From NCBI RefSeq assembly GCF_000026545.1, contig NC_011601.1: a stretch of DNA of 64,000 nucleotides; one strand, given 5' to 3'. Made by a program: the position numbers. This stretch comes from Escherichia coli O127:H6 str. E2348/69 (lineage in GTDB: Bacteria; Pseudomonadota; Gammaproteobacteria; Enterobacterales; Enterobacteriaceae). Positions 6,001 to 9,000 of the stretch are shown here, piece by piece (the stretch's first letter is position 1; every line of letters begins with the position of its first letter).

Positions 6001-9000
6001 GCTATAGGGGTGCTGAGACCGATAACGCATTTTGTAAACCATCCCTGCGAGAGCGAATATTCCGATATCTGGTTATTAATTTATGATTCTTGTTTTATGT
6101 GATCGTGGTAGCGTTAATTTCGCTCATATATCATTGTAAAATATGAGTTTTATATGAACTATAATGTTTTCGTGATAATACGCTGCGTGTATTAGGCGGA
6201 AAAAACTGATCTGGGGGATGTAGAAACTCAAGGAAGTAGCTATAATGCGCCCCGCCTCCATGTAGCAATCGAGGCGCGGAAGATCGTCGTCTCCGGTGAG
6301 GCGGCTGGACTTCAAATCCAGTTGGGGCCGCCAGCGGTCCCGGGCAGGTTCGACTCCTGTGATCTTCCGCCAAAATGCCTCTCCTGAACTCTCCCGACGT
6401 TAACAAAACCCCTTCTAATCCCTTATATATCAGGCTTTCTTTGTGTCCAGAGATCAATCGACTCAACCTGTATCAAGTTGCTTTTGGGGATACTTTAGGG
6501 GGTATTATTTCCTCTTGAAATATTAGCCTCCCATAATAGGAAAAAGGTAATACATAACAATGGTTTTTAACAGCATCTTTGTTATACAAGGGGGCATTGA
6601 GGATATCAGGAAAAATCTCAAAATCGGTGCGGACAGGAAACTACGTGGGCAGCAAAAACGTATGGTAACGCCGGGAAATGCAACGCCCACCAGTCGGGCT
6701 AATCCACCACTCCAATCGTGGTTCGCAGTACTACACACACGATTACCGGGCTATACAGGAGCGGTTTGGTCTGAAAACATCCATGCCGCGTAAAGGTAAC
6801 CGTTACGACAACACCTCAATGAAAAACTTATAGTAAACGCTGAAGAATGAAACTATCGTTTTAATAACCGGGATGAAGCCATCTAAGTAATACGGAAATA
6901 CATTGAGATTTTCTACAACCATCAGCGCCGCCACTCCCGTCTGGGGAATATCTCCCTAGTAGCCTTCAGGAAAAATATAACCAGATAACTGCGTAAAAAA
7001 AGAACAAATGGTGGTGTCCGCTATTGCCAGTATACCTGAGTTTACTGCCTTTCAGATTATCACAATCAATAGCGAACAGACTTTTGAGCTCTGTGCGCTT
7101 TTAACAAAACGTCTCTTTCTCCACTTTCACCGTATAATAATACATTATTTATTACCCCTCCAATAAAAACCGATATTACTAATCACATTTATTACCACGC
7201 AATTTGATATCGGTTTTTATTAGTTGGAAAACAAATAATCAATACCGATTAATCGTTTTAAATTAGTTGGTTACCCTTTCTTCGATTGCTCATAGGCAGC
7301 TAAATGATCTTTTAGTGCCTGTGCAAGGGGCGGTAGTCCACCAGGCCCGGATGCCTGTCCACTTGTCGGTGGCGGTGGTGCCTGACGGGTTGGCTTAAAG
7401 CTTACAGTCTCAGACGCTTTCGATAGTTCATAGGCAGCTAAATGATCTTTTAATGCCTGTGCAATGGGCGGTAAAGGTCGGGATGCCCCGGATGCCTGTC
7501 CACTTGTCGGTGGCGGCGGTGCCGGACGGGTTGGCTTAAAGTTTACAGTCTCAGACGCTTTCGATAGTTCATAGGCAGCTAAATGATCTTTTAATGCCTG
7601 TGCAATGGGCGGTAAAGGTCGGGATGCCCCGGATGCCTGTCCACTTGTCGGTGGCGGCGGTGCCGGACGAGAGGGAGTAAATGAAGTCACCTGGCTGCTC
7701 ACATTAAAAATCGTCCTCGCATTAACATTCGACGAACCTGGAGAAAAGGGGGAATGAACTCTCACCGGAGTAAGACGAACAGCCTGAGGGGCTACAGAAA
7801 ATCCAGTTCCCCCCGCAGAGCTCACTCGACTTGCGATACCTACAAGCTGCCGCCCTAGTGTAGAAGCAGCGTTACTAATTCCATTAAGCATAATTTATGC
7901 CTCTTTATATCTAATCTTGGCTAACTCTCATATATATCAAAACGAATAATAAAATGATTTTTAAATCAAAATAAATTAAAATCCTCGTACCCAACCACTA
8001 ACATTCTCATGGAACAAACTGTACAATAACTGACTCGACTCATCATCCATACAGCCCTCCAAAGCCTTTATCGCATCATTTTTTCTATTTAATCCAAATA
8101 AGATAATAAATTCTAAATGTGCGATATCTTTTTTATCAGGTATAATTTGTGGGAATACATTCAGGATAGCTTCCGCATATTTGGGAAGCTTATGGTTTGC
8201 CGCAGCTACAGCCGCCCACACCAGTATCTTATTAGCAGAAATATCATTAACCATAAAAATTAAAAACTACGGTTAGAAATGGTTGAGACCAGATCTTTTA
8301 TCGTTTTCAACATTCCACTTTCTACGTTAACATAAGCAGAATATTGCTGAACCGCAAACTGCAACTCTAACATTTTTTCAGGGTCATTAACCAAATCGGT
8401 GCTATTAAGTAACTCTGGCACAGAATCGCTCAGCGTTTTACCTACTTCACCCATTTGTTGAGTAATTTCAGATAAATTCATTAAATTTCCCTCAGAAGTT
8501 AATAAAATAATTTTTTTTTAACTATTTACGTTCATTACGAACCAAATTCCGTCTTCTGTTTCTTGCTGCACGGCACCCTTTCTGATGAAGTAATTAAACA
8601 ACTCTTCGCGCTTTTGACGTTCTGAATCTGAACCAATCTTAGATTTCATCGCACTGATTTTCTTAATACCCGAAAAGTGGTGATACAACTCTTCGAGCAA
8701 ACGAGTCAGTGATAAAACAGGGCCGTTAAGCCCTGTTTGGTTACGTGCTTCAAAAGAGCACAAAATCAGTTCTTGTTCATCCAGTCTGTACGCTAATGAA
8801 AAAAAAGGTGTCTCAATCCGCCATCCGATAAAAAAGGCACTGCCACAAAGAAACTCCTTCTGTATTGTGTACCCTTTTTGTTCAAGATAGTAATTAAACA
8901 CTTCATCATTAAACGTATCGACCATGATCAATTACCCAGCTAAGCGAGCCGCTTGCCCCATGCGATTAATAAGGTCAGTAAGATCACGGGCTGTCGTTGT

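Follow-up and report, generated by a model that had tools for sequence, protein, structure and literature searches.

A conserved hairpin downstream of espF, a probable intrinsic terminator at the 3' end of the LEE4 operon of Escherichia coli

The espF-selC junction and its inverted repeat

We analyzed a window of 64,000 nucleotides from Escherichia coli O127:H6 str. E2348/69 (contig NC_011601.1), with the gene annotation of NZ_CP059840.2, which matches the window at 100%. The LEE4 operon is organized in the order sepL-espADB-cesD2-escF-escG-espF; escG, escF, cesD2 and espB, which form the distal part of LEE4, lie upstream of espF on the minus strand, and espF is the last gene of the operon (PMC3903284). 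The features found between espF and selC are collected in Table 1. The element described below carries no annotation in RefSeq.

Table 1. Features of the espF-selC junction, in window coordinates
Feature	Position	Strand	Remark or basis
selC	6278-6372	plus	only match of the Rfam scan apart from two models far under their gathering scores
IS3-family (IS600-like) transposase remnant	~6680-6940		between selC and the repeat
Imperfect extension of the arm, 3' of the U-tract	7144-7161	minus	E2348/69 lineage only, unconserved in other lineages
Hairpin 3' arm	7162-7176	minus	AUAUCGG (7176-7170), then U-tract UUUUUAUU (7169-7162); from the sequence
Spacer with inner helix and apical loop	7177-7206	minus	RNAfold MFE and centroid structures
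Hairpin 5' arm	7207-7221	minus	A-tract AAUAAAAA (7221-7214), then CCGAUAU (7213-7207); from the sequence
espF 3' UTR spacer, stop codon to hairpin	7222-7270	minus	alignments
espF	7271-7891	minus	last LEE4 gene, whose transcript enters the hairpin; ORF and RefSeq annotation of the identical E2348/69 record

The first-pass annotation of this region had reported a perfect 15-bp inverted repeat with a 30-bp spacer at 7162-7221, about 50 bp beyond the espF stop and within the selC to espF junction. All of this was verified. The arm AATAAAAACCGATAT occupies 7162-7176 and its exact reverse complement ATATCGGTTTTTATT 7207-7221, with a spacer of 30 nt (7177-7206); the nearer arm begins 49 nt after the espF stop codon in E2348/69, and the whole element is located between selC and espF. 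Among the perfect inverted repeats of the window with a spacer of 3-60 nt, this one is the longest, the runners-up having 12-bp arms. Sixty shuffles of first order (dinucleotide frequency) likewise yielded no arm above 12, as compared with the 15 observed, which confirms that the repeat is real and beyond chance. The arm 15-mer has no second copy elsewhere in the window, even when 2 mismatches are allowed.

If mismatches are tolerated, the arms extend imperfectly to 33 nt with 82% complementarity (7144-7176 and 7207-7239), and this extension is lineage-specific. On the espF side, the 3' UTR spacer contains a segment of 43 bp (7228-7270) bounded by ATTAGTTGG direct repeats, and it is poorly conserved in efa1-flanked LEEs (57% identity). 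Two short open reading frames touching this region were considered and discarded. A 52-aa frame on the plus strand (7008-7166), which ends in the left arm, has no Pfam match above cut-off and an unconserved start, and was taken as non-coding; a 14-codon frame on the minus strand, following a GGAGG motif at 7140-7160, is frameshifted in the L006 type of LEE and was rejected.

Fold, strand bias and variation of the hairpin

Read in the LEE4 sense, that is on the minus strand, the element has the order 5'-AAUAAAAA-CCGAUAU-[30 nt]-AUAUCGG-UUUUUAUU-3'. Folding of the minus-strand transcript gives a hairpin directly 5' of the U-tract: a 166-nt LEE4-sense RNA adopts one long hairpin of -42.6 kcal/mol, with a z-score of -4.6 against shuffles. 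It had been objected at first that so long a loop does not suit a classical intrinsic terminator. This objection falls, since the 30-nt spacer is itself structured and forms, according to RNAfold, an inner helix of 8 bp (7197-7204 with 7181-7188) that includes 3 G.U pairs and leaves an apical loop of only 8 nt (7189-7196) in E2348/69 and of 6 nt in other lineages, within the range of about 3-10 nt that is usual for intrinsic terminators. When the nascent RNA is made to end at the stem, a 44-nt hairpin forms in six lineages out of six and is followed directly by UUUUUAUU or UUUUUUAU. The U-tract, which begins at the very base of the stem, is kept as UUUUUAUU, UUUUUUAU or UUUUGAUU in all the E. 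coli and E. albertii lineages. As is expected of an intrinsic terminator, the hairpin comes 3' of the last gene of the unit and shares its strand.

The base of the CCGAUAU/AUAUCGG stem is formed by 3 G-C pairs, and the stem is otherwise AU-rich. The energy of the hairpin alone is -11.4 kcal/mol in E2348/69 and -5.9 kcal/mol in O157:H7, for a range of -5.9 to -16.8 kcal/mol among lineages. An AU-rich stem with only 3 G-C pairs, together with this modest energy, counts against a terminator.

On either strand, the stem stands between an A-tract and a T-tract. Because the arrangement of A-tract, stem and T-tract is palindromic, a T-tract also follows the stem when the element is read in the opposite direction. 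On the antisense strand, the inner helix mostly does not form, and the hairpin energy is -6.6 to -8.0 kcal/mol in most lineages and -11.9 to -15.2 kcal/mol in the L006/L097 type.

We then aligned the element across LEE variants, and both arms were found to be kept, with 93-100% identity. When E2348/69 is compared with the LEE type flanked by efa1, identity amounts to 100% in one arm and 93% in the other; it is 55-57% in the non-coding flanks and 81% in the 3' coding end of espF. In an alignment of 11 sequences, standard pairs are formed in 93% of the cells in the LEE4 sense, versus 36-48% when the partners are slid, and in 83% of the cells when the same pairs are read on the antisense strand. 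The bias is stronger for the inner helix, with 91% pairing in the LEE4 sense versus 66% in antisense, and the sense hairpin is the more stable of the two in 10 of the 11 sequences. Fifteen pairs are invariant, seven have changed in one partner only, by way of G.U, and one passes from C-G to U-A with U.G as intermediate. An A-to-G substitution in the A-tract arm, which yields a G.U pair in the sense RNA where the antisense RNA has A.C, is present in an O111-type E. coli LEE and in an E. albertii LEE. The outer stem displays invariance without any compensatory change, and this invariance says nothing on structure. The covariation signal is weak (16/500 and 29/500 in shuffle controls) and the sequences are phylogenetically related; it was therefore used to choose the strand only, and not as proof of structure. 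The initial suggestion of an unusual LEE4 3' structure is supported, a LEE4-sense fold with its U-tract being kept in every E. coli and E. albertii LEE lineage examined.

A query with the 104-bp element matched 696 of 5426 complete E. coli genomes, in exactly one place each. Carriers of escF-escG likewise number 696 among the complete E. coli genomes, so that the counts agree on one copy per LEE. The same query gave no match in 72,556 plasmids or in 50,697 phage records. The element was also found in two Escherichia albertii LEEs, and a pattern scan of 100,044 species genomes returned E. albertii and 84 unrelated hairpins in unrelated phyla, but no wider family. The neighbours on the far side vary and comprise selC with the IS3 remnant, the ISEc8 / 933L region in O157:H7, efa1/lifA, and convergent effector or chaperone genes, a convergent gene being present there in several LEE lineages. 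Whatever the far side, espF always adjoins the element.

Several natural variants were encountered. The LEEs of O157:H7, O55:H7 and O145:H28 are devoid of the 43 bp between the ATTAGTTGG direct repeats, a deletion that brings the hairpin to 6 nt from the espF stop in O157:H7. In O111-type LEEs, the apical loop is interrupted at a TA by a 127-bp insert, and the helices are unharmed. This insert sequence occurs in 5425 of the 5426 E. coli genomes with a median of 10 copies per genome, and we identify it on that ground as an ERIC/IRU repeat; the composite that contains it folds as a single long hairpin. A further lineage has its last espF repeat fused to the element, with the stop codon falling within the hairpin. 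The stem and the U-tract stay together in all three variants. In Citrobacter rodentium, by comparison, the 5' arm and the U-tract have decayed, with homology still visible, and about 60 nt beyond there is a different hairpin of 53 nt, with AUUUUUAUUUU after it. It looks as if one terminator had been replaced by another, which is consistent with turnover of terminator function. The absence of the hairpin from C. rodentium also means that the element is not universal, and this is a point against a terminator.

A terminator of LEE4 and its alternatives

The repeat is an RNA-level feature, both real and conserved. We observe at its site a structure with a definite position, strand bias and conservation, present in a single copy, and we estimate at roughly 60% the probability that it is an intrinsic terminator, probably leaky and partly bidirectional, and the 3'-end hairpin of LEE4. 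On this basis, the polymerase leaving espF would transcribe in turn the A-tract, CCGAUAU, the 30-nt segment, AUAUCGG and UUUUUAUU. The 30-nt segment would zip up as an inner helix of 8 bp capped by an apical loop of 6-8 nt, AUAUCGG would close the stem with the three G-C pairs at its base, and LEE4 transcripts would end in the U-tract, at about 7161-7165 if one judges from how intrinsic terminators work. The hairpin would also shield the 3' end of the espF/LEE4 mRNA from 3'-to-5' exonucleases. Moreover, being a palindrome of A-tract, stem and T-tract, it may also stop, with lower strength, transcription that reaches the island from outside, and LEE4 would thereby be insulated from antisense read-in.

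What is known of LEE4 transcripts agrees with an end in this region. ONT direct RNA sequencing of E2348/69 has described a LEE4 transcript "that terminates after espF" as well as a monocistronic espF transcript (PMC11481537). The supplements of that study contain no 3'-end coordinates, and our literature search returned no published position for the LEE4 3' end after espF; a Term-seq dataset is available for EHEC Sakai (GSE143631; PMC7873438). Given so weak and AU-rich a stem, and with our search yielding no published 3'-end map, termination of the polymerase at the hairpin, and its efficiency, are what we infer and not what we observe.

On the LEE4-sense strand between espF and selC, our own scan gave no further hairpin followed by a U-run. 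A consensus promoter/terminator scan called nothing there but a weak stem of 5 bp, located within the IS remnant at 6699-6685. It does not call the espF hairpin, because it accepts loops of 3-8 nt only, and is in this respect uninformative rather than negative. In a crude scan of the whole window for hairpins with a U-tract, the espF hairpin comes 27th among 84 candidates, well behind compact terminators of canonical form, for example that of eae; this ranking discriminates poorly, as many long spurious intragenic structures score higher, and serves for context only. That the hairpin stands out in neither scan weighs against a terminator. Finally, an Rfam scan of 6000-8200 found no known RNA family at the hairpin, with two plant-miRNA models, far under their gathering scores, merely registering a long hairpin.

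The main rival to the terminator is a hairpin for stability or processing without termination, transcription stopping elsewhere, either in a Rho-dependent manner or further downstream. The hairpin could then be a barrier to exonucleases, a substrate of RNase III, or a docking site for ProQ or Hfq that sets the stability of the espF/LEE4 mRNA. The evidence of structure, strand bias and conservation fits this proposal equally well. With its A:U extension, the full hairpin measures about 25 bp, a length sufficient for RNase III, with an energy of -17 to -25 kcal/mol, and the terminator hairpin proper is weak in O157:H7. ERIC repeats have reported effects on mRNA stability, which the tolerance of the O111-type LEEs to an ERIC insertion recalls. 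However, a pure stability hairpin needs no U-tract, and one abutting a G-C-closed stem is kept in all the E. coli and E. albertii lineages. We hold a processing hairpin without termination to be rather unlikely. In a variant of this proposal, the hairpin would define the 3' end of a small RNA derived from the 3' UTR. Against such an RNA, the sequence upstream of the hairpin, where its seed would lie, is unconserved and is deleted in O157:H7. Our literature search found no small RNA reported at the hairpin site, and the known riboregulation of LEE maps elsewhere, the LEE small RNA sRNA350 being the cesF 3' UTR (PMC5030294) and GlmZ pairing in orf29, away from the espF hairpin (PMC3903284).

One could also wonder whether the hairpin does more than a passive terminator. 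As a conserved, LEE-specific regulatory RNA module of the 3' UTR, it might offer a place where an RNA chaperone or an RNase docks and tunes the dosage of EspF and LEE4. As a lineage-variable boundary insulator, it might be weak in O157:H7, enlarged by ERIC in the O111-type LEEs, and overlapping the espF stop in others. If either were true, variation of the hairpin would contribute to differences in effector expression among lineages. We consider such an additional role improbable. Attenuation was also considered, for the E2348/69 sequence has four attenuator-like segments (7252-7270, 7237-7249, 7207-7227 and 7160-7176) that can pair 1:2, 2:3 and 3:4; O157:H7 has segments 1 and 2 deleted and in efa1-type LEEs they have degenerated, and attenuation was rejected as a conserved mechanism.

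A protein-binding palindrome, as the first-pass annotation had envisaged, would consist of two identical DNA half-sites AAAACCGATAT for a dimeric regulator, a nucleoid protein or a recombinase at the island edge. The perfect symmetry of the repeat and the conservation of its arms in sequence, without compensatory changes, would suit such a site. Yet the substitutions favor pairing on one RNA strand, giving G.U in the LEE4 sense where the other strand has A.C, and a DNA site would make no such distinction. The spacer is itself conserved as a helix, and in a whole LEE lineage a 127-bp ERIC persists between the half-sites. These strand-biased substitutions and the tolerance of the insert argue against a DNA operator. 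In addition, C. rodentium is devoid of one half-site, the half-sites stand 45 bp apart from centre to centre, and no promoter was called nearby. A DNA-level role appears improbable to us.

A mobile-element scar could consist of terminal inverted repeats from some miniature element, of the trace of an excision or of an att fragment at the selC-LEE junction. The repeat does lie near the island boundary, beside an IS3-family remnant, and the homology that LEE lineages share peters out 50-220 bp past it. This reading is nevertheless close to refuted: the element occurs once in each of the 696 genomes and in no plasmid or phage record, and it depends neither on the insertion site nor on the flanks, the same sequence standing next to espF amid quite different neighbours (selC/IS3, ISEc8, efa1, effector genes), with no target or direct duplication seen around it and without the multiple copies per genome of a dispersed repeat or MITE such as ERIC.

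A terminator remains our preferred explanation for the repeat, and the hairpin would be of practical interest if this were confirmed. It would then be settled where the LEE4 operon, and likewise the conserved LEE core, has its 3' boundary. This should aid annotation, the reading of RNA-seq and Term-seq data from attaching-and-effacing pathogens, and the design of espF/LEE4 constructs and deletions that spare mRNA 3' ends. The natural variants, namely the 43-bp deletion, the ERIC in the loop, the stop codon in the hairpin and the replacement in C. rodentium, offer material on terminator strength in relation to the distal LEE4 genes.

Comparison with known terminators and repeats

The espF hairpin is an unannotated example of a very well-known class, and no new kind of element. 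Like the intrinsic terminators of E. coli, it has an A-tract, a G-C-closed stem, a short apical loop and a U-tract immediately 3', and it comes after the last stop codon of an operon. Unlike them, it is long (44 nt), AU-rich and interrupted by an internal loop or bulge, and its energy is at the weak end. Bidirectional terminators have reportedly been described between convergent transcription units (Ju, Li and Liu 2019, Nature Microbiology). The espF hairpin resembles them in being palindromic, and in several LEE lineages a convergent gene lies across from it.

The nearest parallel on the same island can be drawn with the terminator-like hairpin after eae, where LEE5 ends (about 14257-14289, minus strand), which has the same strand sense and stands about 54 nt past the last stop, followed by UUUUUAU. 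The two differ in their build: the LEE5 hairpin has a clean 13-bp stem and a 6-nt loop, with -16.9 kcal/mol over 32 nt, whereas the espF hairpin is made of two helices and is weaker per nucleotide.

Within LEE4 itself, a putative leaky terminator lies in cesD2, with documented readthrough, as later papers report it (Lodato and Kaper 2009, cited in PMC3903284 and PMC11481537). Our own scan detected on the minus strand, at about 8802, a long irregular hairpin with a U-run (-14.4 kcal/mol) that could be the counterpart of this published terminator. The cesD2 terminator shares its operon with the espF hairpin and would then be of similar energy. They differ in that the former, from what is related of it in these citing papers, is internal and lowers the expression of the distal genes, while the espF hairpin comes after the last gene.

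Another parallel concerns the ERIC/IRU repeats, imperfect palindromes of 127 bp in enterobacteria. Like them, the espF hairpin is a transcribed palindrome located in an intergenic region or 3' UTR, and in the O111-type LEEs an ERIC is even nested in its loop. Whereas ERIC is dispersed, each genome having a median of 10 copies, the espF hairpin occurs once only and is specific to LEE, and it has no sequence similarity to ERIC.

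Sequence changes between espF and the hairpin

A 43-bp segment between the espF stop codon and the espF hairpin (the inverted repeat beyond espF, a likely LEE4 terminator) is missing from the LEEs of O157:H7, O55:H7 and O145:H28, where the hairpin is left only 6 nt from the stop. Since all the other lineages retain this segment, which is bordered by direct repeats, its absence is a derived deletion. In E2348/69, the region 7160-7270 contains four related segments able to pair 1:2, 2:3 or 3:4, in an attenuator-like manner. This arrangement is not conserved in the other lineages, and it is thus probably a by-product of local duplication.

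Features at the hairpin and elsewhere in the island (window coordinates unless an L-number, denoting a comparison stretch from another genome, is given)
Feature	Position	Strand	Remarks
43-bp segment	7228-7270		direct repeats ATTAGTTGG at its borders
Attenuator-like segments 1 to 4	7252-7270, 7237-7249, 7207-7227, 7160-7176		segment 1 abuts espF stop codon
ERIC/IRU insert	L003:3245-3371; also L005, L098, L099		insertion point TA at 7190-7191
espF-hairpin fusion	L010:1522-1700 and L106:3700-3790		
IS3-family transposase remnant	~6680-6940		IS600-like, about 85% identical; within 6402-7227
Terminator candidate, LEE5 end	~14257-14289	-	54 nt past eae stop; convergent with escD
Terminator candidate, perfect 15-bp stem	41583-41620	-	beyond rorf1, opposite LEE edge; adjoins yicL

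Insertion into the hairpin and fusion with espF

In the O111-type LEEs, the apical loop is the exact site at which a 127-bp ERIC/IRU repeat has been inserted into the hairpin. The median number of copies of this repeat is 10 per E. coli genome, and the copy in the espF hairpin is present in about 60-78 genomes (at least 95% identity). One lineage of the LEE has the final EspF repeat recombined onto the hairpin with a junction at ATCTTTTAA, so that espF ends in ...QALKDKNRY* and its stop codon lies within the hairpin. These fused genes are labelled pseudogenes by PGAP. The espF gene of E2348/69 (7271-7891) also carries a RefSeq/PGAP pseudogene label ('missing C-terminus'); its 206-aa ORF is nevertheless intact, and the label is probably an artefact of repeat-number variation relative to the reference model.

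On the other side of the hairpin, almost the entire stretch from 30 nt past selC up to the hairpin (6402-7227) is 98% identical in O157:H7, where its counterpart is preceded by ISEc8 and not by selC. Beyond the LEE, a scan of genome contigs (L012-L091) matched the pattern AAACCGATAT-N22-40-ATATCGGTTT in 84 unrelated genomes from many phyla, versus roughly 5 expected by our own estimate, which assumes uniform base composition.

Other terminator candidates and comparison with Citrobacter rodentium

The window also holds two compact canonical terminator candidates made of a hairpin and a U-tract. At about 125-190 nt after its espF stop, C. rodentium has an imperfect hairpin of 53 nt, CCUCUCAGCC...GGUCGAGAGG, and then AUUUUUAUUUU (L101:4003-4070); the sequence of this hairpin is unrelated to that of the E. 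coli element. Finally, rorf1 and espG are found beyond espF in the UTAK-22/O111-type LEE (L003:1-1300) and in C. rodentium (L101:4323-5297), whereas E2348/69 has them at the island's ler end.
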